Source of the DNA: Actinomycetota bacterium
GTDB lineage: Bacteria; Actinomycetota; JAHEXW01
DNA length: 64,000 nt
Reading direction: 5' to 3'
Assembly (NCBI GenBank): GCA_041658625.1
Contig: JBAZZW010000001.1
Coordinates: forward strand, 761,760-825,759
Shown here: positions 10,532 through 40,965 of the stretch, piece by piece
Layout: every line of letters begins with the position of its first letter
How positions within the stretch are numbered: the stretch's first letter is position 1
Translations under genes and position numbers: made by a program
The notes under the pieces: model-generated
Told to the model about the DNA's origin: nothing
Seen by the model: the letters and a program-made list of their open reading frames with translations, nothing else
Databases searched by the model: none

Positions 10532-10565
10532 ATATTAGTTAGAACCTAGACCGTGAGATTATTAC

Positions 10566-11025: not shown

Positions 11026-11042
11026 ATGATTAAGGAGCATGA

Positions 11043-25697: not shown

Positions 25698-27106
25698 ATA
25701 AAACGCGGCGGATTCTAATAATAGCGGCGGCAGTTGTCGGAATCCTTCTAATCGCCGGAGGGGTGCTGGCCAAGGTCCTTGTTTACGACCGGACGGTAGA
25801 CGCGCCGACCGCGGCTGTGGCGATATCCGCCGACGATAGAGTCATGATCATCGCACCTCACCCCGACGACGAAACGCTGGGACCGGGGCTTTTGGCCAAA
25901 CAGGCCGTCAAGATCGGAGCCAAGGTCAAAGTGGTCATTGTTACGGAAGGCGACGCCGGGACGAACGCCGCGAAAGCGGAAAGCCTGAAGCTTAACCTGT
26001 CGCCGGCCGACTATCTTGAGCTGGGAAAAACCAGACATTTGGAGAGTCTGGCCGCTATGAAAGGCCTGGGCGTAACCGACCTGGTCTTTATGGGATTCGG
26101 CGACGGCAGCACGAATTCCCTGTGGCGCGCCAATTGGGACGACAATAATCCCCGTCTGGCCATGAACGGTAAAACCGCCGTGCCATACGATTTTGCTTAT
26201 TGTTTCGGCGAACTGTATTCGGGCAACAGCCTGGCCAAGAACCTTTCCGCCGTGGTAACCGACTTCAATCCGACAGTTATTTTCTACCCTACGCCCGAAG
26301 ACCTGCATCACGATCATTGGGCGGTCAACGCTTTCACCCAATATGTTCTAGCCGAGAACAACATGAAACCTCGGGAGTACACCTATCTGGTCCATCGCGG
26401 GATCCTCTGGCCCAGCCCGCCGCTCTACCGGCCGCAAAATGCTTTGCAGCCGCCCTCCGGTTTGGCTGAGATTGACGCCTCGTGGATCCGGTATAAGGTC
26501 GATGAGGCCGCGGCGGCGGATAAGCTTACGGCGGTCAACAAATATAGGAGTCAGACAAGGGTAAACGGCGTCTGGCTCAGGTCTTTCATCAGAACAAACG
26601 AACTCTTCGCGCTTTATCCGAGCCAAAAAACATCGCAAGCTTCAACGGTTCCGTCGTTCGAAGAGGGCAAGAAACTGCCCGGCCTCGTCATAAACGATTA
26701 CGAGTCGTTCGCGTTGTCTCAGCAGCTCGGCGGCAAAGGCGACATCAGCCGGTTCGCGTTCGCCTACGACAAGGATTTCGCCTTCGTGGCCGTGGAGTTT
26801 AAGAAACCGCAGGCCGCGGATGTCGTAACGATGATGAACATGAGGTTCTTCACCTCGTTAGGTGTGAACCGGTTGGACGTCAAGGTGTTGAACGGAGAAG
26901 CCAAGGCGGTGAAGGCGGCCGAGAACTCGGTAATGCCGATGGTTGAGCTGGTCAAGAACACCTCGGTGGTTGTCATCAAGGTCCCGGTAGCGGTTATGGG
27001 CGGGGCGAAGACGATGATGCTCAATGTGGATACGTTTAGGGACAATGAGAGTGAAGATAACTGGCTGGACCGCACAGTCTGGCGCCGGATAGAACTCTCA
27101 AACTAG
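25694..27106 (+). CDS. PIG-L/LmbE family deacetylase with N-terminal TM helix and an extra C-terminal domain
   Basis: IIAPHPDDETLG and LHHDHW motifs. 470 aa. 4-nt overlap with the Fic gene. Confidence 0.8.
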   Translation: MNKTRRILIIAAAVVGILLIAGGVLAKVLVYDRTVDAPTAAVAISADDRVMIIAPHPDDETLGPGLLAKQAVKIGAKVKVVIVTEGDAGTNAAKAESLKLNLSPADYLELGKTRHLESLAAMKGLGVTDLVFMGFGDGSTNSLWRANWDDNNPRLAMNGKTAVPYDFAYCFGELYSGNSLAKNLSAVVTDFNPTVIFYPTPEDLHHDHWAVNAFTQYVLAENNMKPREYTYLVHRGILWPSPPLYRPQNALQPPSGLAEIDASWIRYKVDEAAAADKLTAVNKYRSQTRVNGVWLRSFIRTNELFALYPSQKTSQASTVPSFEEGKKLPGLVINDYESFALSQQLGGKGDISRFAFAYDKDFAFVAVEFKKPQAADVVTMMNMRFFTSLGVNRLDVKVLNGEAKAVKAAENSVMPMVELVKNTSVVVIKVPVAVMGGAKTMMLNVDTFRDNESEDNWLDRTVWRRIELSN

Positions 27107-27300
27107 TGCGCGCGGGTCCTGTCATCGTTAGTGCTTTGGGGTCAGGACTCTCGCATAAGAAGAAAGTCCTGACCCCGGTTCGTATACGGCGAGCGAACCA
27201 TGCTCTCCGCTCGTTCTGTGACTTCCCTGCATGCTCGATCTTAAATATTCTTCGACTGAGCCCTTCGACTTCGCTCAGTCTAAACTCGCGGAAGCTGGCG
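27107..27300. repeat. composite intergenic repeat, diverged copy D
   Basis: catcgttagtgctttggggtcaggac...gtcctgaccccggtt...atgctctccgctcg...aatattcttcgac shares its modules with copies A-C. Begins 1 nt after the upstream stop. Confidence 0.6.
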
Positions 27301-27385
27301 CTCGAATTCTTAGGGCAGTCTTGTTTGCGGTAACTAGCCTTACGATGTATAATAAGGTAAGGTATATCACAAGGAGGTAAGGCTG

Positions 27386-27631
27386 ATGTTTACAGCGGTG
27401 GCGACAATATCATCAAAACGCCAGATAACAGTCCCCAAGAAACTATGGGAAGACTTAAAAGTTAAGACAGGAGACAAGTTGATCTTCACAAAACGGGGTG
27501 ACGAAATAGTCGTAAAATCCGTGAAAGGAACACCGGAAGAGATGATCAAGTATCTGGGACGGGATCTTAAAAAGGGTGCGGATGTAATGGCGATCCATTA
27601 CGAGTTTGAGGTGGACGACGAATACAGATGA
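27386..27631 (+). CDS. AbrB/MazE/SpoVT-family antitoxin
   Basis: ISSKRQITVPKKLWEDLKVKTGDKLIF looped-hinge-helix motif. ATGA overlap with the PIN gene. Confidence 0.8.
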   Translation: MFTAVATISSKRQITVPKKLWEDLKVKTGDKLIFTKRGDEIVVKSVKGTPEEMIKYLGRDLKKGADVMAIHYEFEVDDEYR

Positions 27632-28131
27632 TTTGTCTCGACGCCTGCATACTTGGCCATGTACTTGTTCCTGAAAACAGCCGCGTAGCGGCAGCGGAAA
27701 AGGCAGCTTCACGAAAGCTCATCGACAGGATTATAAAAGGACAAACCAAGGGCTGTTCACCGACAATCATGATTTCAGAGACTAAGTGGCTTATTTCGCG
27801 TTATGTTAACGCGACGATGCCGGCCGAGGTTCTTTCCCGCGCAGACGAGGTGGAGGAACTCCTGCCGCAGGTACTGGGGACGTATTTCAGGTTTATAGAC
27901 GTCGATTTCGCTATCGCGGCGCTGGCGGCCGATTTTCGCGTGGAACACTATTCAAAGAAGAATGCGTTCTCTTATAATGACGGCTTATATCTGGCAACCG
28001 CGTCGATAACCGGCTGCGAGGCACTGGTCACTACAGACAAACACCTGCTGGCGACCCAGGAGGTTCCGGTCTTTACGCCATCCGCTCTCCTCGCCAAAAA
28101 CAAAATCCCAGCAGACAAAACCGCCATCTGA
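27628..28131 (+). CDS. PIN-domain toxin
   Basis: MICLDACIL N-terminal acidic motif, NDGLYLATA and LVTTDKHL. 167 aa. Confidence 0.7.
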   Translation: MICLDACILGHVLVPENSRVAAAEKAASRKLIDRIIKGQTKGCSPTIMISETKWLISRYVNATMPAEVLSRADEVEELLPQVLGTYFRFIDVDFAIAALAADFRVEHYSKKNAFSYNDGLYLATASITGCEALVTTDKHLLATQEVPVFTPSALLAKNKIPADKTAI

Positions 28132-28290
28132 CCTTATTTCCATGAATCAGTGTTATACTTAAGCAGTAGGTTTTTTGATTGAGCTATTGGTTACCACTTC
28201 TAGGATTTTCCTTCGTCCTTTAAACCCCTGGTTCCTTTGACGAGCCTCCGCCTTCAACCGAAGGCAATGATTGTGAGGGGAGGAGAGAAT

Positions 28291-28599
28291 ATGGGAACCA
28301 GACTCTATGTAGGAAATCTATCCTACGACACCACATCCGATCAGCTCAAAGAGCTGTTCGCAACCAGTGGCGTAGTCGCGTCAGCGGACGTGGTTATGGA
28401 TCGTCAGACCGGCCGCAGCAAGGGCTTCGCGTTCATTGAAATGGGCAGCGAAGAAGCGGCGACAACGGCTATCACGGCGATGAACGAGAAAGAGCTCGAC
28501 GGTCGTAAGCTCAACGTGAACGAGGCTAAGCCTCGCGAAGAGCGCACATCCGGCGGCGGCAGCTACGGAAGCGGCAATTACAGCAGCAAACGCTTCTAG
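28291..28599 (+). CDS. RRM-type RNA-binding protein with Gly/Ser-rich tail
   Basis: RNP2 LYVGNL and RNP1 KGFAFIEM. ATG at 28291 is preceded by GGAGGAG. Paralog of 50232-50540. Confidence 0.9.
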   Translation: MGTRLYVGNLSYDTTSDQLKELFATSGVVASADVVMDRQTGRSKGFAFIEMGSEEAATTAITAMNEKELDGRKLNVNEAKPREERTSGGGSYGSGNYSSKRF

Positions 28600-28623
28600 C
28601 ATCTGCTGATTTTGTAGAACACA

Positions 28624-28670
28624 AACAGCCCCGAGGCGAGATTCACTCCCCCGGGGCTGTTTCTATTTTC
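28624..28670 (+). terminator. intrinsic terminator
   Basis: Stem aacagccccg / cggggctgtt, followed by a T-rich tract. Confidence 0.6.
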
Positions 28671-28901
28671 TAAAGAGACGAGCATACTGCTCGCGTATTC
28701 TACATAGTGCGGACAAACCCGCCCCAATATTCTTCGACCAATCTCGAGCTTGTCGAGAGGGCGTGGAGAAGTCCCCCTCCCCTGCGCGTTAGCGCTCTTC
28801 CCTAGCCGCCGGTCTTTCTTCCCTTTCACGTAGTGATCTCCCCCGACAAAGAAGGAAAAAGAACCCCTCGGATTGATTGTTCCCACCCAATTAGCTGGGT
28901 A

Positions 28902-30053
28902 CTAACCAAACAATTCTAAAAGCGCATCATATGAATAACGTCTATTTCGGCGGGCACCTGTCGTCTCCCGCACGATACCGATCTTTTCCAGCTTATCGAT
29001 GATTTTGGTCGCCGCCTGCTTGCTGATATGAAGTTTATCTACTACGTCCGGCACGGTAATTATCGGCCTCGCCAACAAGTTGTCCAATATCTCAAACGCG
29101 TAAACGCTTTCGATGCCCGCAGCCCTAATTTTTTCACGGTCAGTCTTTTGCAGTTGAATGACACGTTTCGCTGTATCGGCGGCTTGCCCGGCTGTCTCCG
29201 CGACCCCTCGTAAGAAGAATGCCACCCACTGCTCATAGTCATCTCGTACACGGACAGCCGTAAGCCGGTCATAGTACTCCTGCTGGTTATCGTTAAGAAA
29301 AGCGCTTAGATATAGCATTGGCTCGCTTAAGACTCCGCTCCAACACAGAAAAAAGGTGACCAACAGCCTGCCCACGCGGCCGTTTCCGTCCAGGAACGGA
29401 TGGATAGCCTCAAATTGGTAGTGGATGAGCGCGCATTTAACCAGTATAGGCAGGGCAATGTCCGCGTGGATGAACTTCTCCAGATCGCCCATCATTTGGA
29501 CAATATCCGTAGCCGGCGGCGGCACGTATGCTGCTTCCCGTAAGCTGGCTCCGACCGACCCGATCCAGTTCTGCGTTTTCCTAAATTCGCCGGGGATTTT
29601 ATTTTGCCCCCTGACTCCGGTCATAAGTATCTTATGAATCTCACGTAACAAACGCGAGGATAGGGGCAGCTTTTCTAATCGCTTTATTCCATGCCCCAGC
29701 GCTGCCAGATAGTTCATTACTTCTTTGGTGTCCGAGTTCTTTCTGCTTGCCCTAGCCCCGGCCTCATAATCAAGAACATCGGCTAGACTTGATTGAGTAC
29801 CCTCGATTTGCGAACTCAAGACCGCTTCTTTTTTCTCATACATCAAGATGAATAAGTCCGGATTCGGTAAGACGTAGGAGATACCGTCTAATCTGGCGAG
29901 CGCCATATCAGCATTAGATAACAGGACAAGTGATTCGTCATCTAAATGAAGTGATGGATCCGGGGGCAAGGGTGCGGGAATGAACGCCTTGTACCCGGCT
30001 GGTTGTTGAATGAGTCTTCCGCTCCGCCCGTTCATATTATCCTCCATAGTCAA
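28902..30053 (-). CDS. Fic family protein with N-terminal Fic_N region and C-terminal winged-helix
   Basis: Fic motif HPFLDGNGRVGRLL, inhibitory-helix-like SSQIEGT, and C-terminal HISKQAATKIIDKLEKIGIV. Confidence 0.9.
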   Translation of the reverse strand: MTMEDNMNGRSGRLIQQPAGYKAFIPAPLPPDPSLHLDDESLVLLSNADMALARLDGISYVLPNPDLFILMYEKKEAVLSSQIEGTQSSLADVLDYEAGARASRKNSDTKEVMNYLAALGHGIKRLEKLPLSSRLLREIHKILMTGVRGQNKIPGEFRKTQNWIGSVGASLREAAYVPPPATDIVQMMGDLEKFIHADIALPILVKCALIHYQFEAIHPFLDGNGRVGRLLVTFFLCWSGVLSEPMLYLSAFLNDNQQEYYDRLTAVRVRDDYEQWVAFFLRGVAETAGQAADTAKRVIQLQKTDREKIRAAGIESVYAFEILDNLLARPIITVPDVVDKLHISKQAATKIIDKLEKIGIVRETTGARRNRRYSYDALLELFG

Positions 30054-30126
30054 GCGCTAGTGACTAAGACGCGGCCCTTTAATGACATGGTCAACTTATA
30101 TTGACTATGATAGCAACGTTAAGAGA

Positions 30127-30150
30127 TATAGTCAACGTTGGTTGACTATA
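30127..30150. promoter_or_regulatory. 10-bp inverted repeat upstream of the Fic gene (candidate operator)
   Basis: tatagtcaac gttg gttgactata. A related gtcaa..ttgac element lies at about 30090-30106. About 75 nt upstream of the minus-strand Fic start. Confidence 0.4.
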
Positions 30151-30376
30151 GTAAGACAACAGACTCGCAAGTCGTGTAGATCCTACAATAGTGCGGGCAA
30201 CCCCGCCCCAATAATTTCCCTCCCTTGGAATCTCGCCAATTATTCTTCGAGCGAGGAGCTTCAGCGACTAGTCGAGAAGCGAGGGTGCCGCTTGCCAACT
30301 CTTCCCATTGACATACGAACATGTGTTTGGTAGTGTTGTGGCATAATAGAAACATTGGAGAATACGGGACGCTTTA

Positions 30377-30907
30377 ATGAATAAAGAAATCACATCAGTC
30401 GAACTAAAGAGCATTGCGGGTATGGTTCATTTTATCCGCGACCAACGTGTTATGTTGAGCATGGATTTAGCAGAACTCTACGGCGTCGAAACTAAAGTCT
30501 TAATGCAAGCGGTCAAAAGAAATATTGACCGATTCCCACCCGATTTTATGTTTCAACTGAATGATGAAGAATATTCAATCTTGAAGTCACAATTTGTGAC
30601 TTCAAGTTGGGGAGGGGCTCGGCGAGCGAACCCATATGCATTCACTGAGCAAGGCATAGCGATGCTTTCTGGCATATTGAACAGCCCACGTGCCGTTGCT
30701 GTAAATATTGCGATAATGCGCGCTTTTGTTCAAATGCGAAGAGTGCTTGAACAAAACGCTGAGCTTCTCAGCAAGATTGATGATCTGGAGCATAAGTACT
30801 CAGACCACGATGAGAAAATCCATGTGATATTTGCTGCAATCCGAGAGCTTATGACTCCTCCGGAGACGCCCAGACGTCCGATTGGATTTGGCGAAAACGC
30901 GCAATAG
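30377..30907 (+). CDS. ORF6N-domain DNA-binding protein
   Basis: IRDQRVMLSMDLAELYGVETKVLMQAVKRNIDRFPPDFMFQL...NPYAFTEQGIAMLSGILNS is the ORF6N pattern. Confidence 0.8.
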   Translation: MNKEITSVELKSIAGMVHFIRDQRVMLSMDLAELYGVETKVLMQAVKRNIDRFPPDFMFQLNDEEYSILKSQFVTSSWGGARRANPYAFTEQGIAMLSGILNSPRAVAVNIAIMRAFVQMRRVLEQNAELLSKIDDLEHKYSDHDEKIHVIFAAIRELMTPPETPRRPIGFGENAQ

Positions 30908-31335
30908 CGCGGACAATCCCGCCCCCATATTTCCCTCCTATGAATTCCTTCTACAAATATTCTTCGAGCGAGCGTAGCGAGTGGAGAAGTTCCCTCTCCC
31001 CCGCGGGCCTGCCTGCCGGTAGGCAGGGAACTGACACGCTACTTTCTTTACCAACTAATTCACGTGCGTGGTGGATCAAGAACCAAGAACAGAAACAAAA
31101 ACAGGAACAAAATCCCCTCAGATTGATTGTCCCCACCCACCCAATTGATTGGCGACCCCGGTCACGTTCATTACCGTTGAAAAACGTAGTACTTGAGCTT
31201 GACAAATATAGGCAATGACATCGTAACGTAATTGTTGTTAAACAATAATGACATTACGAGGATATATGATTGTCCCCACCCACCCCTATTAAGAGACTCG
31301 CCGAATAAAATGCTCGAATTCTCATAAGACAAGGT

Positions 31336-31374
31336 CACAGTTTTAAGGTCACAATTTGTGACCTTAAAACTGTG
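31336..31374. repeat. 39-nt perfect palindrome (19-nt arms, 1-nt centre)
   Basis: cacagttttaaggtcacaa t ttgtgaccttaaaactgtg. Same core as the palindrome inside the ORF6N genes at 30580-30606 and about 31655-31683. Confidence 0.9.
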
Positions 31375-31557
31375 AACAGCAGAGAAAGTCATGATTGAGG
31401 TACCAATTTGGCACCTCAAAGACTGTGAACTGCGAGAAGAAAAGGTGGTCGCAAAATGCGACCACGTATAAACTCACATGCCGCTAGCAGAAACAGAAAC
31501 CAAACCCTAGGCAGCCAGAGAACTCAGACGAAAATCGTCATCCTAAGGAGGCGCGCA

Positions 31558-31954
31558 GGCGTTGACACAAAAGTCCTTATGCAGGCGGTCAGGCGCAACA
31601 TAGAAAGGTTCCCGAATGATTTCATGTTCCAGCTTACTGAGCAGGAGATTAAAGATTTAAGATCACAAATTGTGACTTTAAATCTTGCTACAACGAGATG
31701 ATCAAACCCATACGCGTTTACAGAGCAGGGTGTCGCAACCGAAGCAGAAACCAAAACCAGAAGCAGGCAGAGAAGCGTCATCCCGAGCGACCCCACAAAT
31801 GCTGCGAGGGAACTGACACGCCACCCACTATCCAGGAAGAATCGTGTATGGTGGATCAGACCACGACGAAAAGATCCAAGTGATATTCGCGGCAATCCGC
31901 GAACTAATGACTCCGCCGGAACCATCCAGGCCACCGATTGGATTTGGTGATTAA
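31558..31954 (+). pseudogene. degraded ORF6N-domain gene
   Basis: Encodes GVDTKVLMQAVRRNIERFPNDFMFQL...LRSQIVT, then a stop and frameshift, then NPYAFTEQGVA (other frame), then about 120 nt of unrelated repeat, then HDEKIQVIFAAIRELMTPPEPSRPPIGFGD-stop. Collinear with 30377-30907. Confidence 0.7.
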
Positions 31955-31965
31955 TGAATAACGTA

Positions 31966-32037
31966 GGGGAGAATGAAAAAGGCGGGGAGAAAAGGGAGAA
32001 TGTTTGAAGATGGGGAGAAAGAAGAAAGAAGGGAGAA
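31966..32037 (+). repeat. array of five GGGAGAA heptamers
   Basis: GGGAGAA begins at 31967, 31985, 31994, 32013 and 32031. Confidence 0.8.
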
Positions 32038-32113
32038 AGTTTGCGGCCTGGCCAATTGAGGCATAGAATGATAATTGGAAGACTAGATAGAATGACGATT
32101 AAGGACATAGCAA

Positions 32114-32323
32114 ATGACTAAGAGCGAAGTTGCAGAACTCAGAAAGCTTGATAGAAAGATTCTCAAAGAATTCCGCGGTAAATGGGTCGCGAGAGACGGA
32201 TTAAAGATTGTGGCCGTCGCCGACTCTCTGCAAGACGTGCTCAAGACCGCGCGCGCCAAGGGTGTCAAGAAACCTATAGTCAGGCAAGTTCCCGAAGAAA
32301 CGCGCCGCTACTCGTTCTACTAA
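32114..32323 (+). CDS. small protein, possible partner/antitoxin of the downstream aspartic protease (DUF5678-like, tentative)
   Basis: 69-aa ORF. FRGKWVARDGLKIVAVADSLQDVLKTARAKG resembles small proteins I recall paired with retropepsin-like genes. TAATG overlap with the next gene. Confidence 0.5.
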   Translation: MTKSEVAELRKLDRKILKEFRGKWVARDGLKIVAVADSLQDVLKTARAKGVKKPIVRQVPEETRRYSFY

Positions 32324-32769
32324 TGCCCGTTCAGCCACAGGACAAGCCGTTCATCAGACAGTCTTATCGTCCGCTCTTCGGACCGACGCTTGTTCCGACG
32401 ATTACTCTGTCTTTACGCCTTTCCCGCCGGCCCTCCAAGATCATCACTGTCGACTGTCTGTTGGATTCAGGCGCGGACCAATCAATTATGAGTTTTGAAA
32501 TCGCCGAAGCATTGGGTTTGCGGCGAAACCAAGCCTCAGTAGAACGCGGTGAGGGATTCGGTGGCCAGTTCAGGATGATGACTTTTCAGGGAGAAGACTT
32601 CATTGGTTCTGTGTCTGATGACGGATCGGAACATCGCTTTGGTATGAGTCCAAGATTTCATGAACCGGGGATGAAGTCGATGCAGGTCCTAGGCCGTTTG
32701 GATTTCTTTAAGGCTTTCTCGCATATCGAAATCCACGAGCGCGGGAAGTATCTAGATTTATATCCATAA
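32323..32769 (+). CDS. retropepsin-like aspartic protease
   Basis: LLDSGADQSIM is the D(S/T)GA active-site motif of the retroviral-type aspartyl protease fold. ATG at 32323 is used rather than the tracked 32182, which would overlap the whole upstream gene. Confidence 0.7.
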   Translation: MPVQPQDKPFIRQSYRPLFGPTLVPTITLSLRLSRRPSKIITVDCLLDSGADQSIMSFEIAEALGLRRNQASVERGEGFGGQFRMMTFQGEDFIGSVSDDGSEHRFGMSPRFHEPGMKSMQVLGRLDFFKAFSHIEIHERGKYLDLYP

Positions 32770-32803
32770 ACATATATTTTTCCTCCCTCGACCTCCAATC
32801 CGC

Positions 32804-32977
32804 TTCTCCATGGTTCTTGTTCTTTCACCCTGCCGTTAATCATTTCTCCCTAGTTGCCAATCTTCTTCTCCCCGACCCCCGACTTGTCTCCCTGTCTCCA
32901 GATCATTCTCCCCTGAATCTCTGATTCTTCTCCCCATCCACTAAGTTCTTTCTCCCTAACCCCCGAAACATTCTCCC
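32804..32977 (+). repeat. phased array of TTCTCCC heptamers (reverse complement of GGGAGAA), period about 21 bp
   Basis: TTCTCCC or a 1-mismatch variant at 32804, 32844, 32866, 32886, 32906, 32928, 32950 and 32971. Spacings from 32844 onward are 22, 20, 20, 22, 22 and 21 bp. Confidence 0.85.
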
Positions 32978-33422
32978 TTGTTTAACGACTGGCGCAAGCG
33001 GATGCTACTTATAGTCCGTGGTAATATATTCCTCTTTTCCATGATTATGTGGGCGGAGGGGATATGCCAAATTACACGGATGAACAGAAACAAGAGGCAG
33101 ACAGAGAAACGTCACCCTGGGGCGAAGGCAGCCAGAGAATCGTCATCCCGAGTGACCCCGCAGATGCTGCGAGGGAACTCAGACGGAGCTTTCACTCCAG
33201 CTAAAATCGTGCCCTGAAGATCAAACATGAATCCAGGAAGAATCTTGCGTGGTGGAGCAGAAACAAGAACATCAAATGATTCGTGTTTGGTGGATCGGAA
33301 ACAAGAACCAGTAGGTTGAAAGGCAAGACTTGACGCCTTTAATAGAAGTAATTCGGCGACGCAATAAAGACAGAATGAACTTTTCTTGTTAGTATTTGCA
33401 TTAATACGGCGCGTGTCTTGGT

Positions 33423-33446
33423 TTGATCAAATATATGTTTGATCAA
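33423..33446 (+). promoter_or_regulatory. two TTGATCAA palindromes 16 bp apart upstream of the five-gene operon (candidate operator/promoter region)
   Basis: ttgatcaa at 33423-33430 and 33439-33446, in AT-rich DNA about 60-80 nt upstream of the ATG at 33504. Confidence 0.3.
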
Positions 33447-33503
33447 TTTAGACAAAGAAGACAAGTTGGCTAAAGCTTGTTAGTTTAAGAATATTGGAGT
33501 TGC

Positions 33504-35615
33504 ATGAGTCTTCGAGATATTGAGTTTAAGCCTTCATACTCGTCTGATTCAGATGATATTCTCAATGAGTTTTATATTCCCGCGCTTCAAGAATCAGTTC
33601 TATATAGAAGATTGGCCGGCTACTATTCCTCGACAAGTCTAGCTATTGCGGCAAAAGGAATTCTCGGGCTTCTTAAGAGTGGCGGGTCAATGCAGATGGT
33701 GATCTCTGCAGAGCTAAATCAGCAGGATATGGATGCAATACGATCGGCTACGGAGACGCCAGAACAAATATTTGCACAAGTAATTATTGATGACCTAAAT
33801 AATCTTAAAGACTTACTAGTGTATGAACATATAAAGGCACTTGGGTGGCTTCTCGCAAATAATAGACTCGAAATAAAAGTCGCTGTACCCCGCGCCGATG
33901 GCATTTTTCATCCAAAAATAGGTGTTTTCAACGACCGGCAAGACAATATAGTAACTTTTAGCGGCTCAATAAATGAGAGTGCCATGGGCTGGAAAGGGAA
34001 TGATGAGTTTTTTAAATCGTTTGTAAGTTGGAAACCAGAGGATTCATCAAGACTTCATGCAGACATTGATGAGTTTAATAAGTACTGGAACAACACAGCA
34101 AAGCGAAGTCAAATTGTTGATGCTCCAATTGCCTTAAGGAACAAGATTGTTTCTTTGGCGCCATCTAGTTCAAACGCCAAAGACCTTGAAGTCCTATACA
34201 AATCACTCCAAGAAGAAGAACATATAGATTTACAAAAAGATGAGGAAAAACCGCCAATAAAACTTCGTGATTATCAGAAAGATGCAGTGCTTAGTTGGCA
34301 AAATAACAAGAATATTGGAATATTTGAAATGGCTACTGGAACAGGAAAGACACGGGCCGCCTTAGCTTGCATGGATAGCTTGATCCGAAAAGACAAGACA
34401 CAGAATTTATTCATTGTTGTATGTCCATCGAATCAACTAATCGTCCAATGGATTGACCAGGTAGATGAATTGGTCGCGATTGACGGACCTGTAATTATTG
34501 CAGATAGCACAAATCCAAAATGGAAAGATGATGTAGCTGATAGGCTTGTCGACTTCAACCAAACGCGATATAGAAATATCTTGATTGTGACAACATACAG
34601 TACTTTCTCATCAAGCCGATTCCACAAAATGGTTCAAGAGGCTAGTGGAGAATCAGTCTTCCTAATTGCAGATGAAGTCCATAATCTAGGGGCTCCAAAG
34701 TTTAAAAAGGGAATCGACGAGTATTATAAGAAAAGGCTCGGCTTAAGCGCAACACCTAAGCGCTGGTTCGACGATACTGGCACAAGTGAGATTTATGATT
34801 ACTTTGGCGGCGAAGTCTTTTCCTTTAGCTTGGGCGATGCTGTTACACAGATAAATCCAGAAACCGAAAGAACATATCTTACCCCATATAGATATTTCCC
34901 TTCTTTCATATATCTAACAGACCAAGAGACTAGCGAATACCTAGAGCTGTCAAAAACGATTGCTCGACTTCAGGGCATTAAATCAGATTCAGGGGACGAG
35001 CAAGTAACCTCAATTGAAAGATTGCTCTTCAAAAGAGCCAATATAATAAAAAACGCGGTTAACAAACTCCAAGCGCTCGATGAAATAATCAGAAATATCA
35101 ATCCAGATCTTACAGGCACCCTTATTTATGTAAGTCCCCAACAGATTCAAGAGGTAATGCAGATGCTTGGCGCCTCATCGATTCGTGCGCAAAGATTCAC
35201 GATGGAGAAAGGCACAAAGAAAGAGAAAAAGTATGGTGGCAAATCAGAAAGAAGCTATCTTTTGGAAAACTTCTCGAAAGGTAAATTTCAGGTCTTGGTT
35301 GCTATGAAATGCTTAGATGAGGGAGTTGATATTGCCGAAGCAAGAACTGCAATCTTTCTATCAAGCTCAGGTAACCCAAGAGAATACATTCAAAGAATAG
35401 GAAGAGTACTAAGAAGGTGCTCGGGAAAAGAAAGCGCATCTATTTATGACATTATTGCTTTGCCCAAGAAAGGGCAAGTACCAAAAGAAATGAAAGATAT
35501 TGAAGAAAAGATGATTAGGAGAGAGCTGAAAAGGTATATTGAAATTGCGAGGACCGCACTAAACAACGGCGAGGCAATTGCGGCAATTTCAAAGATATAT
35601 GAACAGTATAAGTAG
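33504..35615 (+). CDS. HKD (PLD-family) nuclease domain fused to an SF2 DEAD/DEAH-type (type III Res-like) helicase
   Basis: N-terminus: YRRLAGYYSSTS, then a single HKD-like motif FHPKIGVFND...FSGSINES (H at 33909). Helicase: LRDYQKDAV, Walker A MATGTGKT, motif II IADEVHNLG, motif III LSATPKR, motif VI QRIGRVLRR. Confidence 0.85.
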   Translation: MSLRDIEFKPSYSSDSDDILNEFYIPALQESVLYRRLAGYYSSTSLAIAAKGILGLLKSGGSMQMVISAELNQQDMDAIRSATETPEQIFAQVIIDDLNNLKDLLVYEHIKALGWLLANNRLEIKVAVPRADGIFHPKIGVFNDRQDNIVTFSGSINESAMGWKGNDEFFKSFVSWKPEDSSRLHADIDEFNKYWNNTAKRSQIVDAPIALRNKIVSLAPSSSNAKDLEVLYKSLQEEEHIDLQKDEEKPPIKLRDYQKDAVLSWQNNKNIGIFEMATGTGKTRAALACMDSLIRKDKTQNLFIVVCPSNQLIVQWIDQVDELVAIDGPVIIADSTNPKWKDDVADRLVDFNQTRYRNILIVTTYSTFSSSRFHKMVQEASGESVFLIADEVHNLGAPKFKKGIDEYYKKRLGLSATPKRWFDDTGTSEIYDYFGGEVFSFSLGDAVTQINPETERTYLTPYRYFPSFIYLTDQETSEYLELSKTIARLQGIKSDSGDEQVTSIERLLFKRANIIKNAVNKLQALDEIIRNINPDLTGTLIYVSPQQIQEVMQMLGASSIRAQRFTMEKGTKKEKKYGGKSERSYLLENFSKGKFQVLVAMKCLDEGVDIAEARTAIFLSSSGNPREYIQRIGRVLRRCSGKESASIYDIIALPKKGQVPKEMKDIEEKMIRRELKRYIEIARTALNNGEAIAAISKIYEQYK

Positions 35616-35624
35616 GGGGCGTTC

Positions 35625-35822
35625 GTGGATAATGAAGGTATGTACGAAAAGATAATTAATGAATTGCAGAAGCAATGCAAAGACGAGCCAGAGATTGGAT
35701 TCCTGCTGATCAAATTGCTTGCAGAAGAAGCTGACCGTCCGAGAACGGCGCAGTGGAAAGCCTCATATGAGAAATTAATTAGGAGCACCAGGGATCGATT
35801 GGAAAAAGCCAATGAGAATTGA
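35625..35822 (+). CDS. small helical hypothetical protein (operon member)
   Basis: Starts 10 nt after the helicase stop (GTG 35625, or ATG 35640). Overlaps the start of the next gene by 11 nt. Shares the AT-rich composition of its neighbours. Confidence 0.5.
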   Translation: MDNEGMYEKIINELQKQCKDEPEIGFLLIKLLAEEADRPRTAQWKASYEKLIRSTRDRLEKANEN

Positions 35823-37809
35823 AAAACTAATAATGAAGAATTATCGTCAATACAGAGATGAAATATTGCACTTTAGGAGCACTTCAGAGTGCGATCTTAC
35901 TGTGTTTATTGGACGAAATGGCACTGGAAAATCTAATATTCTTAATGCCATCAACTGGTGTCTTTATAAAGAAGAGCCTCATTTGAATGATGAGTCAGTA
36001 AGTATGCCTCCAGTAACAATGGACAGTGTACTGCAGAGCCCAGATGGATCTGAGCACAGTGTATCTGTTGAGCTTTATATCGATTCTGGTGAAGGAGGGA
36101 AAATAGTTTTTAATCGGACGGCAAGGTATAAAGTCTTTAAAGAAACAGCGATGGCAAAAATTGAAATGGGTGAGCTATATAGATACGTTTCAACCTATAT
36201 GGACCTAGAAGTCCAGCATATAAAGAAGAACGGCGAGACTGACTATTTTAGCGAAGATGAAGACGTAGAGTTTTTTATTGATACATTTATCCCAAAGAAT
36301 ATTCGTGGGTTTTTTATTTTTGATGGGGAACGGCTAAGTTCGTATTTTAAAGTAGCCGTTCAGAAAAATATTAGAAGCGCCATTCTTAGCCTATCAAGAA
36401 TCGAAGTTTTAGAAACAATAAAAGATCGCCTTGGAACAATATTAACAGAATACAACCGTGAAGCTGGAAGGTATAGCCCTGAGCTTGAGGAGATAGAAAA
36501 ACAGCTTAATCAAGCTATAGAAAGAGAAAATGAAGCATCAAATATGCTTAATGAAGCGCAGGTTCAAATTGACAGCGCAAAAACTCAAATCGAAGAACAC
36601 AAGGGCGAAATTGAAGGTTGTCCTGATGCTATGAAACTTAATACTGAGCGGGATGAGTTGAAGGATAAAGTGCAATTAACAAATAAGAGGCGTGAGAAAA
36701 ACCATATTGAATATCTAAACAGTCTATTTGAGTTAGGGAAAACAGCAAATTCAAAAGCAGCGCTTACTAGCCTATTAGATATAATCAACAAGAAAATACA
36801 GAACCACGAGTTGCCACCGCCGATTGAAAATAGAAATCTTGAACAATCGCTAAAAGATGGTAAATGTGTTTTATGTGGGGTAGCAATATCTAAAGAAACA
36901 GAAAATCACATTAAGGAGACAATGAAGCAAATTTCGACATCTTCCTTTGCTGCAAGGCGACTAAGCGAATTAGAAAATCCGCTTCACAGGGTATTAGAAA
37001 AAGAGCGTGCTCTAAAAATTAATATCGCTAGTGCAATTGAAAAGATTCAGGACTGCGATAAACAGATCCAAAAAGCACAGACAAGAATCGAAGAAATTGA
37101 CCATACACTATTAGGCCATAATAAAGATTCCATCAGAGAACACCAAGAACAAATCCTGATCCTAGAGGATGTCTATATGACAAACTTGATAGCACTGGGC
37201 ACATGGAAAACAAGGCGAGACGAAATTCGAAAAGGAATACCAGACATAAAAAGAAGACGAGACGATGAAATGGAGAAACGGAAGGACATAGAAGAACTAA
37301 AAGGTCGTATCTGCGTATGCGAAACTGCTTTTGCTAAAGCTAGTGATGCAAGAGAAAGTATTTTATCCAAGACAAGGGAATACGTAGAAGAAGAAACCAA
37401 CAAAGCGTTCTCGAAACTTATGTGGAAGAAAAAGACCTATAAACGAATAAAGATAAAAGAAGACTACTCGCTGAGTGTAATCCATGTTTCAGGACAAGAA
37501 TGGTTTCCACACATGAGTGCAGCCGAAAGACAACTTCTCGTTCTTTCTTTTACGATTGCTCTCCATACGCTTGCAGGATTTGACTCACCACTCATTATTG
37601 ATACGCCGGTAGCAAGAGTTGACGACGAAAACCGGGAAAACTTTGCGGAAGCTTTTGCTAAGATTTCTCAAGCAAAGCAAGTCGTTCTAATCTTGAGCCC
37701 CACAGAGTGGTCTTCAGAGATCTCTGGTGTTCTCGATAGGTATGTTGGAGGCAAATATAGGTTAGATCTAAATGAGGAAGAAACCGAAACACGCGTTAAG
37801 GAGGCATAG
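35812..37809 (+). CDS. SMC/Rad50/DndD-like ABC ATPase with central CxxC hook
   Basis: Walker A GRNGTGKSNILNAI. About 350 aa of heptad-rich E/K/L/Q sequence. CVLCG at residues 352-355 of 665. Signature-like MSAAERQLL. Walker B/D-loop LIIDTPVARVDDENRE. Confidence 0.85.
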   Translation: MRIEKLIMKNYRQYRDEILHFRSTSECDLTVFIGRNGTGKSNILNAINWCLYKEEPHLNDESVSMPPVTMDSVLQSPDGSEHSVSVELYIDSGEGGKIVFNRTARYKVFKETAMAKIEMGELYRYVSTYMDLEVQHIKKNGETDYFSEDEDVEFFIDTFIPKNIRGFFIFDGERLSSYFKVAVQKNIRSAILSLSRIEVLETIKDRLGTILTEYNREAGRYSPELEEIEKQLNQAIERENEASNMLNEAQVQIDSAKTQIEEHKGEIEGCPDAMKLNTERDELKDKVQLTNKRREKNHIEYLNSLFELGKTANSKAALTSLLDIINKKIQNHELPPPIENRNLEQSLKDGKCVLCGVAISKETENHIKETMKQISTSSFAARRLSELENPLHRVLEKERALKINIASAIEKIQDCDKQIQKAQTRIEEIDHTLLGHNKDSIREHQEQILILEDVYMTNLIALGTWKTRRDEIRKGIPDIKRRRDDEMEKRKDIEELKGRICVCETAFAKASDARESILSKTREYVEEETNKAFSKLMWKKKTYKRIKIKEDYSLSVIHVSGQEWFPHMSAAERQLLVLSFTIALHTLAGFDSPLIIDTPVARVDDENRENFAEAFAKISQAKQVVLILSPTEWSSEISGVLDRYVGGKYRLDLNEEETETRVKEA

Positions 37810-37813
37810 GACA

Positions 37814-38224
37814 ATGACAATGATTACAAGCCCAGATAGGCTCAATATAGATAAAACTGACCGCCGACTCTACGAGCAGCTTGACAAAGAGCCGGTATTG
37901 CTGGGGAAAACCCGAGGACGAAAAGATCAGTTTCTTCTCGCTATGTCTATCGGTTATAAAAGCGGGATGAGATTGCCCATAAAGTCTAAGGAAGGTTTCG
38001 TACTTACGAAAGACCTTAATGCGGAGGACTATGCGTTAATATTTGCAGTAGCTGCAAGTGACAGTAAAAATATTGACATAATTGCCGACGACGTAGAAGT
38101 TGTTTCCATCGCGGAAGAATATGCACATGCAGGAATTAAGACATTGATTGAAAAATTAAAAGAAGTTGGTTTTGGTAGTTTTGAAAAGCAATTCGAGAAG
38201 GAGATATTTAATATCCTCGGCTAG
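37814..38224 (+). CDS. small hypothetical protein, possibly DndE-like
   Basis: ATG at 37814 is preceded by AAGGAGG (37798-37804). The tracked alternative start 37772 overlaps the ATPase gene. The DndE-like idea rests only on size, position after a DndD-like ATPase, and a loose C-terminal resemblance (EEYAHAGIKTL). Confidence 0.55.
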   Translation: MTMITSPDRLNIDKTDRRLYEQLDKEPVLLGKTRGRKDQFLLAMSIGYKSGMRLPIKSKEGFVLTKDLNAEDYALIFAVAASDSKNIDIIADDVEVVSIAEEYAHAGIKTLIEKLKEVGFGSFEKQFEKEIFNILG

Positions 38225-39557
38225 ATCGCATTTTACCCGAAAAACAATAAGAATTCTGCTCGTAGAGCCATCTTTTCCGATTCCTGCGAAAAGCAAGAAT
38301 CATAAGAACTTTCTTCCGGTTGGCTTACTTAAGATTGCTTCTTATCAAAGAACTCTAGGCAACGAAGCGCAACTTTACAGGGGCGTCCCTATTGGTTTTT
38401 TTGAGACAAGTCGTCTTGTGGCGTTTAAACCTGATGAGATTTGGATTACGTCTCTTTTTACTTATTGGTCTCCCTATGTGAAAGAAACCGTCGAGTTCTA
38501 TAAAGACCTATTTCCGAACGCAAAGATTACTGTTGGAGGTATCTATGCGTCACTAAGGCCAATTGAAGAGGTAAAACAATACACCGGTTGTGATGAAGTA
38601 TTTCAAGGTGTGATGGGAGCAGCCGAGAGTCATGAGCCCGCTTATGACTTGCTGGAATACAAAAATGGCAGCCCAATTGATTACCAGATTTTACACGCTT
38701 CTAGGGGTTGCATAAGAAACTGCGAGTTTTGTGGGACTTGGAAGATTGAGCCAGAATACAAGCCAAAGAAATCAATAGTTGATGAGATCTTTCCCGGAAT
38801 CAGAAAACTGGTTTTCTACGACAACAACCTTCTTGCTAATCCCCATATTGAAGATATTCTCAAAGAGCTTGCGGAATTAAAAAGGACTCATCGAATTCTA
38901 TGGTGCGAAAGCCAGTCTGGCTTCGATGGAAGAATCTTGAAAGAGAAACCACATCTGGCAAGAATGCTGAAGAAGGCCGGATTTCAAAATCCCCGTATTG
39001 CCTGGGACTGGGGTTATAAACAGCACGAGAGTATAAAAAAACAAATTGACATACTACTCGATGCTGGTTATAAGTCGAACCAGATATATGTTTTCGTAAT
39101 ATATAACTGGGACACGGTGTTCGAAGAAATGGAACAAAAGCGAATTAAAAGTTTCGAATGGAAGGTTCAAATTGCCGACTGTCGCTATCGACCCCTAGAT
39201 CAGATGTATGACCACTATAAAGGGAGCACCAAGGGCCAAACGAACAAGGACTATTACATTCACGAATCAGCTGGTTGGACGGACGCGTTAGTTAAACAGT
39301 ATCGGCGCAATATACGCGAACAAAACATCTGCGTCCGTTATGGGTTTGACCTGTATTCAAGAGCGTTTGAGCACAAAACTCAAGGTCAGAGTGTTCGTCG
39401 TCAGATGAAGCTATTGCCTACGCTAGACGAAAAAAAGGACTTTATGGAATCTCGCGGATACGATTTTTGGGTTCCAGATAAAATTAGGTACCCCGTTGAT
39501 GACTCGATTCAATCTGACCAAATCTCACTTGCTGTTAGTGAAAAGGTCAGGGCGTAA
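38166..39557 (+). CDS. radical SAM enzyme with N-terminal B12-binding-like (class B type) domain
   Basis: CxxxCxxC cluster motif CIRNCEFC at 38709-38732. N-terminus IRILLVEPSF...FLPVGLLKIASY resembles the Rossmann-like B12-binding domain of class B radical SAM enzymes. Exact start is uncertain (TTG codons at 38166-38181, no ATG). Confidence 0.8.
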   Translation: MVLVVLKSNSRRRYLISSARSHFTRKTIRILLVEPSFPIPAKSKNHKNFLPVGLLKIASYQRTLGNEAQLYRGVPIGFFETSRLVAFKPDEIWITSLFTYWSPYVKETVEFYKDLFPNAKITVGGIYASLRPIEEVKQYTGCDEVFQGVMGAAESHEPAYDLLEYKNGSPIDYQILHASRGCIRNCEFCGTWKIEPEYKPKKSIVDEIFPGIRKLVFYDNNLLANPHIEDILKELAELKRTHRILWCESQSGFDGRILKEKPHLARMLKKAGFQNPRIAWDWGYKQHESIKKQIDILLDAGYKSNQIYVFVIYNWDTVFEEMEQKRIKSFEWKVQIADCRYRPLDQMYDHYKGSTKGQTNKDYYIHESAGWTDALVKQYRRNIREQNICVRYGFDLYSRAFEHKTQGQSVRRQMKLLPTLDEKKDFMESRGYDFWVPDKIRYPVDDSIQSDQISLAVSEKVRA

Positions 39558-39562
39558 ATCAT

Positions 39563-39655
39563 ATGTTTAGAGTATGTATACAAAACAACCAGCTCGTTTA
39601 TGAGCTATACGGCCTAACCGACGAAGCAATAACGGGGTCAAGTCTTTACTTTTAA
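39563..39655 (+). pseudogene. remnant of the C-terminal end of a type IIG / PglX-like DNA methyltransferase
   Basis: The frame encodes ...NQLVYELYGLTDEAIT... then a stop. (L)VYELYGLT(E/D)EEI is the characteristic extreme C-terminus of Eco57I/PglX-type N6-adenine methyltransferases. No upstream body remains. Confidence 0.45.
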
Positions 39656-39739
39656 CATTCTCTTAAAACCTGGTTTCTAGGTCTCGTCTTCTAAAAGTCA
39701 AGTCTGTTTTTAGTCATTTGATTCTGCTAGTCTGGCGAC

Positions 39740-39934
39740 ATGGTAAGAGCACTGCGCATCGAATACCCCGGGGCTGTCTATCACGTAATGAGCCGCGGTA
39801 ACGAAAGAAAAGCAATTGTCCGATCAAAAGAGGACCGAGAACGGTTCACTGAAGTCTTAAGAGAAGGCGCGAGTCGATTCAACATCCTGATCCACGCCTA
39901 TTCAAAGTCAAAGGGGTCAGGTCGTGCTATGTAA
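39740..39934 (+). pseudogene. 5' fragment of a RAYT/IS200-like Y1 transposase gene
   Basis: MVRALRIEYPGAVYHVMSRGNERKAIVRSKEDRERFTEVLREGASRFNILIHAY parallels the first ~56 aa of the full-length gene at 40002-40880, then diverges into a REP-like sequence and stops. Confidence 0.7.
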
Positions 39935-40965
39935 CCTTTTAAGTTGGTGAAGTTGATGCACTACCAACTTATGAATCTGAACAGGCACGGCAACCTTGCA
40001 ATTACCCTTCATTGAGATATTTTTCTGTTTCTGAGATCACTCGGCTTAAATAGGCGCGGTGAAGACCTAGATGGTTTGCGACTTCTCGCTGCTTGTATCC
40101 GAAATCGTAGATTGCGCTATGTGCCTTTAGGTTTCTATCTGATATTGACAATCCGGCCGGGAGCAAGGCCGAAAGTGGGGGCCGGTCAGCGTATCTGTGT
40201 GATCGAGCGAGTTCTTTTATCTCGTCTGCTTCCCAAAAGACGTTTGAGAGCTTATCGATGAAGGTGTCGCTCCCTAAGACACAGCCACCGCGGATATTCT
40301 CGAACGGCTTGTCGGAGCCGGCCTCAGGGGTCAAGACGAATTCCTGGTACCGCTTTTTGGCCAGCCTCTTCTTGCCCGCGAACTGGGAGAGGACCCAATC
40401 AGTCGCGAGAAAACCGCCATCGTTATCTGACAGGCCGGCAATCGCGCGGTAGCTACTCCATCTGTAATCGGCCGGATGCTCGACGAGGCCCGCCCGGATC
40501 GGATTCAAAACGATATATCGGCAAAGACACAAGAGATACTCGTCGCGTTCGACGAGGATAGCCTTGTATCGACCCTGATAGACATGACCGACTGTTTTGT
40601 TTCGGGCGTTATAACGAGTTGTATAGACCCCGTTGATGTAATGCATGACCTCAGCGAGGTTGCCGTCAGGAGTCTCAACGAGAAGGTGGTAATGGTTTGT
40701 CATTAGGCAGTAGCCGTGGATGAGAACGTTAAAGCGTTTTGCGGCTTCTTCCAGAATTACCAGAAAAGCCTCACGGTCCTTATTTGTTCTGACGATAGAC
40801 TTCCGGCCGTCGCCGCGGCTCATAACGTGGTAGACGGCGCCGGGGTACTCGATGCGTAGAGGTCGTGCCATGACGAACACGCTATCAAATTATGGATGAA
40901 AGAAAAAGACTTGACTTATAACGGACGGAGTCAATAATTAACCTTACAAAGCACGACCTGACCCC
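39913..40965 (-). mobile_element. RAYT-type unit: Y1 transposase gene bracketed by inverted 15-nt REP-like sequences
   Basis: ggggtcaggtcgtgc at 39913-39927 and its exact reverse complement gcacgacctgacccc at 40951-40965 flank the transposase CDS. Confidence 0.7.
40002..40880 (-). CDS. IS200/REP-associated tyrosine (Y1, HUH) transposase-like protein with C-terminal DnaA-C-like HTH
   Basis: YHVMSRG, HUH-type MTNHYHLLVETP and catalytic-Tyr region VYQGRYKAILV. C-terminus GYKQREVANHLGLHRAYLSRVI is HTH-like. Confidence 0.8.
   Translation of the reverse strand: MFVMARPLRIEYPGAVYHVMSRGDGRKSIVRTNKDREAFLVILEEAAKRFNVLIHGYCLMTNHYHLLVETPDGNLAEVMHYINGVYTTRYNARNKTVGHVYQGRYKAILVERDEYLLCLCRYIVLNPIRAGLVEHPADYRWSSYRAIAGLSDNDGGFLATDWVLSQFAGKKRLAKKRYQEFVLTPEAGSDKPFENIRGGCVLGSDTFIDKLSNVFWEADEIKELARSHRYADRPPLSALLPAGLSISDRNLKAHSAIYDFGYKQREVANHLGLHRAYLSRVISETEKYLNEG

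Follow-up and report, generated by a model that had tools for sequence, protein, structure and literature searches.

The closest described relatives of the locus examined here are the PbeABCD systems, also called CxC ABC-ATPase/DndE-anchored systems, which were reported together with DndCDEA by Xiong et al. 2019 (PMC6459918), and whose components were re-annotated by the Aravind lab in 2024 as an HKD nuclease-superfamily 2 (SF2) helicase, a small protein, an ATP-binding cassette (ABC) ATPase of the CxC clade, and a DndE cognate (PMC10853773). Pbe/CxC systems pair with phosphorothioate (PT) genes (dndCDEA) or with C5 or N4 methylases, and alternative modifications have also been proposed (PMC6459918, PMC10853773). 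In a 64,000-nucleotide stretch of the genome of an Actinomycetota bacterium (assembly GCA_041658625.1, contig JBAZZW010000001.1, positions 761,760 to 825,759; hereafter the window, to which all coordinates refer), we identified an operon that, judged from its family matches, is a complete PbeABCD cassette followed by a gene for a radical S-adenosylmethionine (SAM) enzyme. It is of the restriction type and not a Dnd/Ssp modification cluster, as it had been read in the first-pass annotation. The radical SAM enzyme probably marks host DNA, because it stands in the slot that is usual for a DNA methyltransferase or a sulfur-modification module, both in PbeABCD and in other restriction-like systems. 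We consider it probable that PbeC and PbeD direct the enzyme to DNA, which it marks as self, and that PbeA restricts DNA lacking the mark.

Compared with DndCDEA-PbeABCD, the window cassette contains all four Pbe parts in the same order, with strong scores for PbeA and PbeC, and shares the features of a mobile island and of transfer between domains of life. It differs in lacking dndCDEA as well as any C5 or N4 methylase, and in possessing a tightly coupled fifth gene encoding the class-B-like radical SAM enzyme. This partner is not mentioned in the texts of either PMC6459918 or PMC10853773, and one supplementary file of the latter contains neither radical SAM nor B12. Our literature search found no paper linking radical SAM enzymes to Pbe, CxC or DISARM; Krishnan et al. 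2020 (PMC7544218) lies outside that scope. The radical SAM module would be an addition to modification-dependent defence that is undescribed in the literature found, and PADLOC holds no model for the enzyme.

The five cassette genes abut or overlap. The first encodes PbeA (33504-35615, + strand), a 703-aa HKD (phospholipase D-like) nuclease fused to an SF2 helicase and the predicted restriction component, which was recognised by PADLOC (PbeA, 5.2e-224), NCBIfam (TIGR04095 dnd_restrict_1, 3.7e-121) and Pfam (ResIII, 5e-25; Helicase_C, 1.5e-14; PLDc_2, sub-threshold at 25 bits). Its HKD-type active-site motif, HPKIGVFND...FSGSIN (33909-33974, + strand), follows the pattern HxK...GSxN, which is kept in 17 of 17 radical-SAM-linked PbeA orthologues, with H136, K138 and N157 invariant in the alignment. 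The second gene, found as an open reading frame (ORF) and by independent gene callers, encodes an acidic, PbeB-like small protein of 65 aa (35625-35822, + strand); it begins with GTG and overlaps the start of pbeC by 11 nt. Positional equivalents of 67-76 aa are present in four sister loci (L001, L003, L007 and L012), and a tblastn comparison with the equivalent ORF in a further locus (L019) gave 37% identity. No family matched this protein, as is expected for the small (~66 aa) and fast-evolving PbeB. Both genes at the head of the operon had been overlooked in the first-pass annotation.

The third and fourth genes encode the proteins that had earlier been described as a DndD-like ATPase and a small protein of DndE-like size. 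Both are present, but the ATPase scores far better as PbeC, a CxC-clade ABC ATPase that is the sister of DndD (35812-37809, + strand; 665 aa; PADLOC PbeC 3.3e-114 versus 7.6e-46 for the best DndD model), and it fails the DndD equivalog TIGR03185 with 133.8 bits against a cut-off of 245.85. It has Walker A (GRNGTGKS, 35911-35934) and Walker B (LIIDTP, 37591-37608) motifs and a coiled coil, at the apex of which lies a CVLC zinc-hook motif (36865-36876, + strand; residues 352-355 of 665); a central CxxC is found in 13 of 17 PbeC orthologues. PbeD (37814-38224, + strand; longest ORF from 37772) is a DndE cognate with two ribbon-helix-helix (RHH) units and the predicted DNA-targeting subunit. It matches TIGR04062 dnd_assoc_4 at a sub-threshold 3.3e-7, and a precomputed PF27807 assignment exists for the exact protein. 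Its AlphaFold2 (AF2) model (predicted local distance difference test, pLDDT, 83) contains a strand-helix-helix unit twice, and the top Foldseek matches in the PDB are DndE structures (4lrv and 7x4e), with a template modelling (TM) score of 0.5-0.65 and a non-significant E of ~0.75.

As the first-pass annotation had noted, the operon contains no cysteine desulfurase (DndA), DndC or methyltransferase. None was found either among the longer flanking ORFs searched with Pfam or among gene-caller matches in the upstream flank; the search took in some of the short ORFs in the flanks and a sample of the remaining window. We rejected a true Dnd or Ssp cluster on the DndD equivalog score below its cut-off together with the absence of DndC and DndA. 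Scans for promoters and terminators returned fewer sites than in shuffled sequences and so give no indication of the operon boundaries.

The fifth gene (38166-39557, + strand) encodes the radical SAM enzyme, class-B-like and predicted to be the DNA-modifying module, with 463 aa when read from the TTG at 38166, a start that is uncertain. The coordinates given earlier for this ORF and for its CX3CX2C motif are exact: CIRNCEFC, the radical SAM [4Fe-4S] cluster site, lies at 38709-38732 (+ strand; residues 182-189, with cysteines C182, C186 and C189). Upstream of it is a Rossmann-type, cobalamin-binding-like domain (38241-38615, + strand) that includes the segments ILLVEP, LPVGLLKIASY, TSLFTYW and GGIYAS. 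The reading of this N-terminal region as the cobalamin-type Rossmann domain of class B enzymes is borne out by a sub-threshold PF02310 match, by the AF2 model and by Foldseek, which aligned the domain alone with the corrinoid-binding proteins 1y80 and 4jgi at a probability of 1.0, and also with the cobalamin domains of CysS, TokK and OxsB. We take the segments LPxGLxxxA, FxDNN and ESxSG to be further class B features.

In a database search, homologues in bacteria and archaea numbered more than 2,500; those listed are 410-450 aa long and typically 57-65% identical to the window protein. Most carry precomputed PF02310 and/or PF04055 matches. Their source names are generic ("cobalamin-dependent protein", "Fe-S oxidoreductase"), with 2-hydroxyethylphosphonate methyltransferase as one evident misnomer. 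The three motif cysteines are invariant in 25 of 25 and in 75 of 75 aligned homologues. The family alignment contains more than 130 invariant columns, among them further cysteines at C142, C339 and C389, with C247 and C329 nearly invariant; the N-domain holds a single invariant cysteine. The window protein is full-length and retains every one of the invariant residues, and a pseudogene was accordingly rejected.

Profile search and structure prediction, proposed in the first-pass annotation for deciding on a cobalamin site, gave sub-threshold PF02310 and PF04055 matches and a confident fold. Pfam searches at E up to 0.1 found no SPASM, twitch or UPF0004 three-cysteine domain. The AF2 model, built with 75 homologues, reached a pLDDT of 90.7 and a predicted TM score of 0.87, and its top Foldseek matches in the PDB, over ~400 columns, were CysS (E 1.8e-9), TokK (5e-9) and OxsB (7e-8), on whose radical SAM barrels that of the model superposes. 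The window enzyme shares with these three the N-terminal cobalamin-type Rossmann domain and the CX3CX2C partial TIM barrel. It differs in length (~420 aa for the family versus 620-730), in possessing its own Arg/Lys-rich C-terminal helical domain, and in a DNA-defence context in place of natural-product or cofactor biosynthesis.

Placement in a well-characterised family that does not act on DNA was also looked for. No NCBIfam family came near its cut-off (best BchE, 32 versus 481 bits; also BzaD and HpnR), searching the PDB sequences with a profile made from the aligned family yielded nothing relevant, and only the distant structural matches to CysS, TokK and OxsB appeared. By NCBIfam and the PDB profile search, the protein falls in none of the characterised class B subfamilies (BchE, BzaD, HpnR, Fom3/PhpK, CysS/TokK and OxsB). 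PADLOC gave no match at E up to 0.1, its pVip (viperin) models included, and a Foldseek comparison with the viral BFVD was not discriminating, as its matches were all generic models, B12-like radical SAM or methylthiotransferase-like, at 10-14% identity. Because no PDB chain by sequence and no NCBIfam model came near a cut-off, we regard the protein, on its alignments and model, as a member of a distinct, unnamed, class-B-like radical SAM family. Its fold makes the use of cobalamin likely.

Conservation of the operon was examined in a species scan restricted to one genome per species, which found the radical SAM family in 162 species, and in a context survey of 81 non-redundant genome loci of the family. 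By record titles, all 162 species belong to lineages that we take to be anaerobes (methanogens, anaerobic methanotrophic archaea (ANME), Asgard archaea, DPANN, the candidate phyla radiation (CPR), Omnitrophota, Elusimicrobia, Bacillota, Chloroflexota and others), so the host range fits an oxygen-labile enzyme. Across the 81 loci the radical SAM gene typically closes an operon of one of at least seven types, and in 72 it lies inside a recognisable restriction-like operon. The most frequent context is a GHKL ATPase with a 330-aa protein (26 loci on its own, 29 with mixed loci included), followed by PbeABCD (19 loci, or 21 with two that also have the GHKL genes) and by a DISARM-like arrangement of DrmA-DrmB-DrmC with an 870-1100-aa protein (12 loci). 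Less common are two ParB-like proteins with an SNF2 helicase (5 loci), a HerA-type context (3 loci), a DndB/DpdB-HEPN fusion (2 loci, 3 with one mixed) and a MADS-like context with an N6 methylase and a specificity subunit (2 loci). No context was recognised at the remaining 9 loci, 7 of which are cut by a contig end.

The collinear five-gene cassette, with ends overlapping or abutting, is present in 21 of the 81 loci. Its hosts include Bacillota, Chloroflexota, Phycisphaerae, candidate-phylum bacteria, Thermoplasmatota, Methanobrevibacter (M. curvatus DSM 11111 among them), Nanoarchaeota and Asgard archaea, and it adjoins integrase remnants in Koleobacter methoxysyntrophicus (CP059066) and Ca. 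Odinarchaeum yellowstonii. No conserved dnd gene family was found near the cassette in these 21 radical-SAM-linked Pbe loci. The cassette also lies on the contig of the closest homologue (L086), whose radical SAM protein is 80% identical to that of the window. The five genes probably form one horizontally mobile defence cassette. Directly upstream of pbeA on the L086 contig, a 290-aa gene (4360-5232) has a faint EVE-domain match; EVE domains are PUA-like readers of modified bases.

The converse test started from metagenome PbeA proteins that shared at least 47% identity with the radical-SAM-linked panel and had sufficient flanking sequence. A gene of this radical SAM superfamily lies beside the cassette in 10 of these 11 loci, and at least three subfamilies are represented; some of the genes belong to the same family (52-68% identity) and others are paralogues (28-37%). 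Among more distant PbeA loci, a minority only has a radical SAM gene. In a neighbour-joining tree of the radical SAM family the context types are intermixed, which indicates repeated exchange of the module between them.

The sister loci permit comparison with further described systems. Relative to class 2 DISARM (DrmE-DrmA-DrmB-DrmC-DrmMII), the DISARM-like loci, which are not the window's own operon, have DrmA (1e-110), DrmB (2.5e-19) and DrmC (5e-14) followed by a large protein, and the radical SAM gene occupies the slot of the DrmMII methylase. They differ in lacking a methyltransferase and in a fourth protein (870-1100 aa) that matches neither DrmE nor DrmD. With the Dpd (7-deazaguanine) and Dnd/Ssp (phosphorothioate) systems the radical SAM loci share the concept of a complex, non-methyl self-mark made by a dedicated module and coupled to helicase/nuclease restriction, and ParB/DndB/DpdB-like and SNF2 (DpdE-like) partners recur beside the radical SAM gene. 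Unlike them, the radical SAM systems contain no tRNA-guanine transglycosylase (TGT)/DpdA, QueC, DndC, DndA or SspABCD, and their chemistry must differ.

Several partner proteins of the sister loci, namely the families c6 and c12 (~330 aa), c10 and c11 (870-1100 aa), c21, c23, c51 and c16, had no informative match in Pfam, PADLOC or NCBIfam; for c6 the sole match was the uncharacterised PP_RS20740 family, and for c23 a chance-level match to PspA. Two composite loci (L047 and L072) combine the GHKL ATPase, the 330-aa protein, PbeA, PbeC and PbeD with a single radical SAM gene and an adjoining N6/N4 DNA methylase; the one radical SAM enzyme may serve two restriction-like modules there. In another locus (L029, ~10001-12500), two tandem radical SAM genes of 396 and 459 aa lie beside a c23-c24-HerA operon on the opposite strand. 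The family is also found in CPR bacteria and DPANN archaea (L032, L040, L047, L048, L053 and L070). To our knowledge these lineages are generally without cobalamin synthesis, so that B12 must be scavenged if the radical SAM enzyme truly needs it.

A more direct link to DNA comes from gene fusions and from a minimal pair. In a 50%-cluster search of radical SAM relatives, which gave 1,376 representatives, we found a protein (P0238) in which a C5 cytosine DNA methylase (PF00145, 5e-57) is fused to a radical SAM domain that is 31% identical and has the CX3CX2C motif intact, and a second (P0262) with the same two domains in reverse order. Stand-alone relatives of the P0238 fusion form a large paralogous subfamily beside Mrr_cat nucleases and GHKL ATPases in dense restriction-modification islands. 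These fusions to Dcm-type methylases hint that a 5-methyl group could be a substrate in some subfamilies. On an IMG/VR contig (L083), PbeD (45% identity) directly precedes the radical SAM gene (57%), and neither PbeA nor PbeC lies within 8 kb; the pair resembles, in its gene content, an orphan modification module on a mobile element. More generally, a DNA-binding protein, either the RHH protein PbeD or a ParB/DndB/DpdB-like protein, recurs as the immediate neighbour of the radical SAM gene. Taken together, the modification slot shared by PbeABCD, DISARM-like, GHKL, Mrr and HerA/MADS-like systems, the methylase fusion and the PbeD pair give strong comparative support to the suggestion of the first-pass annotation that the radical SAM enzyme would be the DNA-modifying step, and we infer that DNA is its substrate. 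The locus of the P0238 fusion (L085, 8001-10334) also contains small ORFs, a ParM/ALP-type segregation ATPase and a gene of the 3'-phosphoadenosine-5'-phosphosulfate (PAPS) reductase family, and is probably part of a plasmid or virus. Two other relatives (P0220 and P0265) are interrupted by inteins with LAGLIDADG homing-endonuclease domains.

In the mechanism that we propose, the radical SAM enzyme would stand in for the DndCDEA phosphorothioation genes or the cytosine methylases of other PbeABCD systems. PbeD, through its double ribbon-helix-helix, and PbeC, as a zinc-hook ABC ATPase, would scan DNA, select sites and recruit the enzyme, which would cleave SAM at its [4Fe-4S] cluster and, with cobalamin as the probable methyl carrier, place a covalent mark on host DNA. 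PbeA would then attack invading DNA without the mark, and PbeB may act as a regulator. The likeliest mark would be a C-methyl group at a carbon beyond the reach of SN2 methyltransferases, whether that carbon belongs to a base or to a methyl group already present. B12-mediated C-methylation is our leading guess for the chemistry by analogy, because the closest structural relatives, CysS and TokK, are methylases of unactivated carbons. We extend this more tentatively, as a plausible proposal that falls somewhat short of probable, to this radical SAM superfamily as an unrecognised class of DNA-modifying enzymes whose mark would serve as an interchangeable self-label of Pbe, DISARM-like, GHKL, Mrr, HerA/MADS-like and ParB/SNF2 systems in anaerobic bacteria and archaea. 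Candidate marks in this wider reading may include C-methylation at purine C8 or C2 and, as the Dcm fusions hint, conversion of a 5-methyl to a 5-ethyl pyrimidine.

Several points weigh against DNA self-marking by the radical SAM enzyme. The case is one of association, action on DNA is not known to us for any B12-dependent radical SAM enzyme, and radical hydrogen abstraction on DNA carries a risk of strand damage. Both Pfam matches of the enzyme are sub-threshold (PF02310: E 2.6e-5, 24.5 bits, cut-off 32.1; PF04055: E 3.9e-5, 24.3 bits, cut-off 29.5), the Foldseek matches to CysS, TokK and OxsB have a TM score of only ~0.5 at 12-14% identity, and no diagnostic sequence motif exists for cobalamin binding. 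A conventional N6/N4 or N6 methylase is also present in 10 of the 81 loci, and the radical SAM enzyme therefore need not be the sole marker there. When the neighbours of the PbeD pair on the IMG/VR contig were compared with PHROG, only one family, without an assigned function, was matched, so that the contig is only putatively viral. Finally, the start of the window gene is non-canonical or ambiguous. Homologues of 410-425 aa begin near nt 38241-38253, a stretch of the window gene without any ATG, GTG or TTG. The in-frame TTGs are at 38166, 38172 and 38181, and automatic gene callers predict a product of 379 or 461 aa. Translation may begin at a non-canonical codon or at a TTG further upstream that overlaps pbeD. 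A strong AAGGAG lies at 38198-38203, 7 nt ahead of an in-frame ATA at 38211.

Among the alternatives, the enzyme could be an effector instead of a marker. Upon infection it would make a replication-blocking nucleotide analogue, as viperins do with 3'-deoxy-3',4'-didehydro-CTP (ddhCTP) and OxsB with the oxetanocin precursor, while the Pbe, DISARM and GHKL components would serve as sensors. OxsB, a B12-dependent enzyme acting on deoxyadenosine nucleotides, is indeed among the top structural matches, and DndCDEA-PbeABCD was reported to stop viral DNA replication without DNA degradation (PMC6459918). Nevertheless, the gene sits in the methylase or Dnd slot of otherwise complete, nuclease-containing systems, its immediate partner is DNA-binding (RHH or ParB/DndB-like), and fusion to a DNA C5 methylase is seen in a relative. 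The pairing with PbeD on a mobile or viral contig without other Pbe genes likewise does not suit an effector, nor do the absence of viperin similarity and of any PADLOC match, or the lack of an OxsA-like HD partner. We consider this explanation unlikely.

Sulfur chemistry on the DNA backbone or on a base, through a phosphorothioate or thio-adduct made independently of DndC and DndA, would leave the cassette PT-sensing, in keeping with the fact that the sole characterised PbeABCD is PT-dependent. SAM radical chemistry has been claimed for DndC in the literature, the invariant C142, C339 and C389 and the near-invariant C247 and C329 could bind an auxiliary cluster, and in BFVD the scores of a viral methylthiotransferase model and of the viral B12-type radical SAM models were similar. 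However, these extra cysteines are spread over different secondary-structure elements, and no SPASM, twitch or UPF0004 three-cysteine motif is present. Further, sulfur-inserting enzymes do not figure among the top PDB matches, which are B12-dependent methylases and OxsB, no sulfur-donor gene is linked, and systems of the methylation type (DISARM-like, MADS-like, Mrr and the Dcm fusion) are likewise among the partners of the family. This reading appears quite unlikely, slightly more so than an effector.

Modification of a protein or peptide, for example of PbeB in the manner of maturation of ribosomally synthesised and post-translationally modified peptides (RiPPs), would regulate the nuclease and leave DNA untouched. 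Such a role would suit a PbeB that is small, fast-evolving and without an assigned function, and several class B enzymes methylate peptides or proteins. It is very unlikely, given that the enzyme is equally linked to operons lacking PbeB (DISARM-like, GHKL, ParB/SNF2 and Mrr), that PbeD is its sole partner on the IMG/VR contig, that the Dcm fusion points to DNA, and that the enzyme has no RiPP recognition element (RRE) or SPASM domain. Least probable is incidental adjacency, in which a metabolic cobalamin radical SAM enzyme is carried along in a defence island: such islands do gather cargo genes, and homologues bear names such as 'Fe-S oxidoreductase' or '2-hydroxyethylphosphonate methyltransferase', but the collinear order with overlapping ends spans two domains of life, 72 of the 81 loci have the gene within a restriction-like operon and 7 of the 9 others are truncated by contig ends, and every NCBIfam match falls far below its cut-off. 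DNA self-marking by the radical SAM enzyme accordingly remains the explanation that we prefer.

The cassette resides in a low-GC, horizontally acquired island (30001-40000), identified from the composition profile. GC content drops from ~55% to 39-46% between 30 and 40 kb, with the cassette at 39-42% versus 50-58% in the distant flanks. The island also carries an ORF6N gene, and PIN and Fic genes lie just upstream of it (27.6-30.1 kb). These belong to a toxin-like/mobile gene cluster upstream of the cassette (24540-32800), which comprises a Fic/DOC protein (24540-25697, + strand), a PIN protein (27628-28131), a second Fic/DOC protein with Fic_N and helix-turn-helix (HTH) domains (28902-30053, - strand), an ORF6N/KilAC protein (30377-30907) and a DUF5678 gene. 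On its downstream side the cassette directly adjoins an IS200-like Y1 transposase of 292 aa with a C-terminal HTH (40002-40880, - strand), which may mark the island boundary.

The first-pass annotation had further argued that B12 capture at a riboswitch locus in the same genome fits a cobalamin-dependent enzyme. The adenosylcobalamin (AdoCbl) riboswitch is real (RF01482, 21025-21168, + strand, 54.6 bits), but the argument is weak: of the two genes behind it (to 23352, + strand), one encodes a 469-aa protein of the squalene-hopene-cyclase-type alpha/alpha toroid and the other a 258-aa protein without a Pfam match, and neither is recognisable as a B12 transporter. The riboswitch indicates that the organism senses cobalamin, and nothing beyond that. 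A molybdenum- or tungsten-cofactor riboswitch (RF01055, 17104-17242, + strand; 60.5 bits, E 4.8e-12) lies upstream of an ORF at 17335-18201.

If DNA self-marking by the radical SAM enzyme is true, these systems would represent both a new natural DNA modification and new enzymology, in the form of radical, probably cobalamin-dependent chemistry on DNA. The enzyme would be the first known B12-dependent radical SAM enzyme to act on DNA, and its product a kind of self-marking beside methylation, phosphorothioation and 7-deazaguanine. Cultured hosts are available in Koleobacter methoxysyntrophicus and Methanobrevibacter curvatus for the Pbe type, in Methanococcoides sp. FTZ1 (NZ_CP195121) for the DISARM-like type and in Ca. 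Velamenicoccus archaeovorus LiM (NZ_CP019384) for the GHKL type, and the apparent minimal unit is PbeD with the radical SAM enzyme. Such an enzyme, C-alkylating DNA in a sequence-specific manner, would be of use as a tool as well. Self/non-self recognition would be explained for some "solitary" PbeABCD and methylase-less DISARM-like systems, and anaerobes, including methanogens, ANME, Asgard archaea, DPANN and CPR, would be using a modification module that current defence-system catalogues miss.

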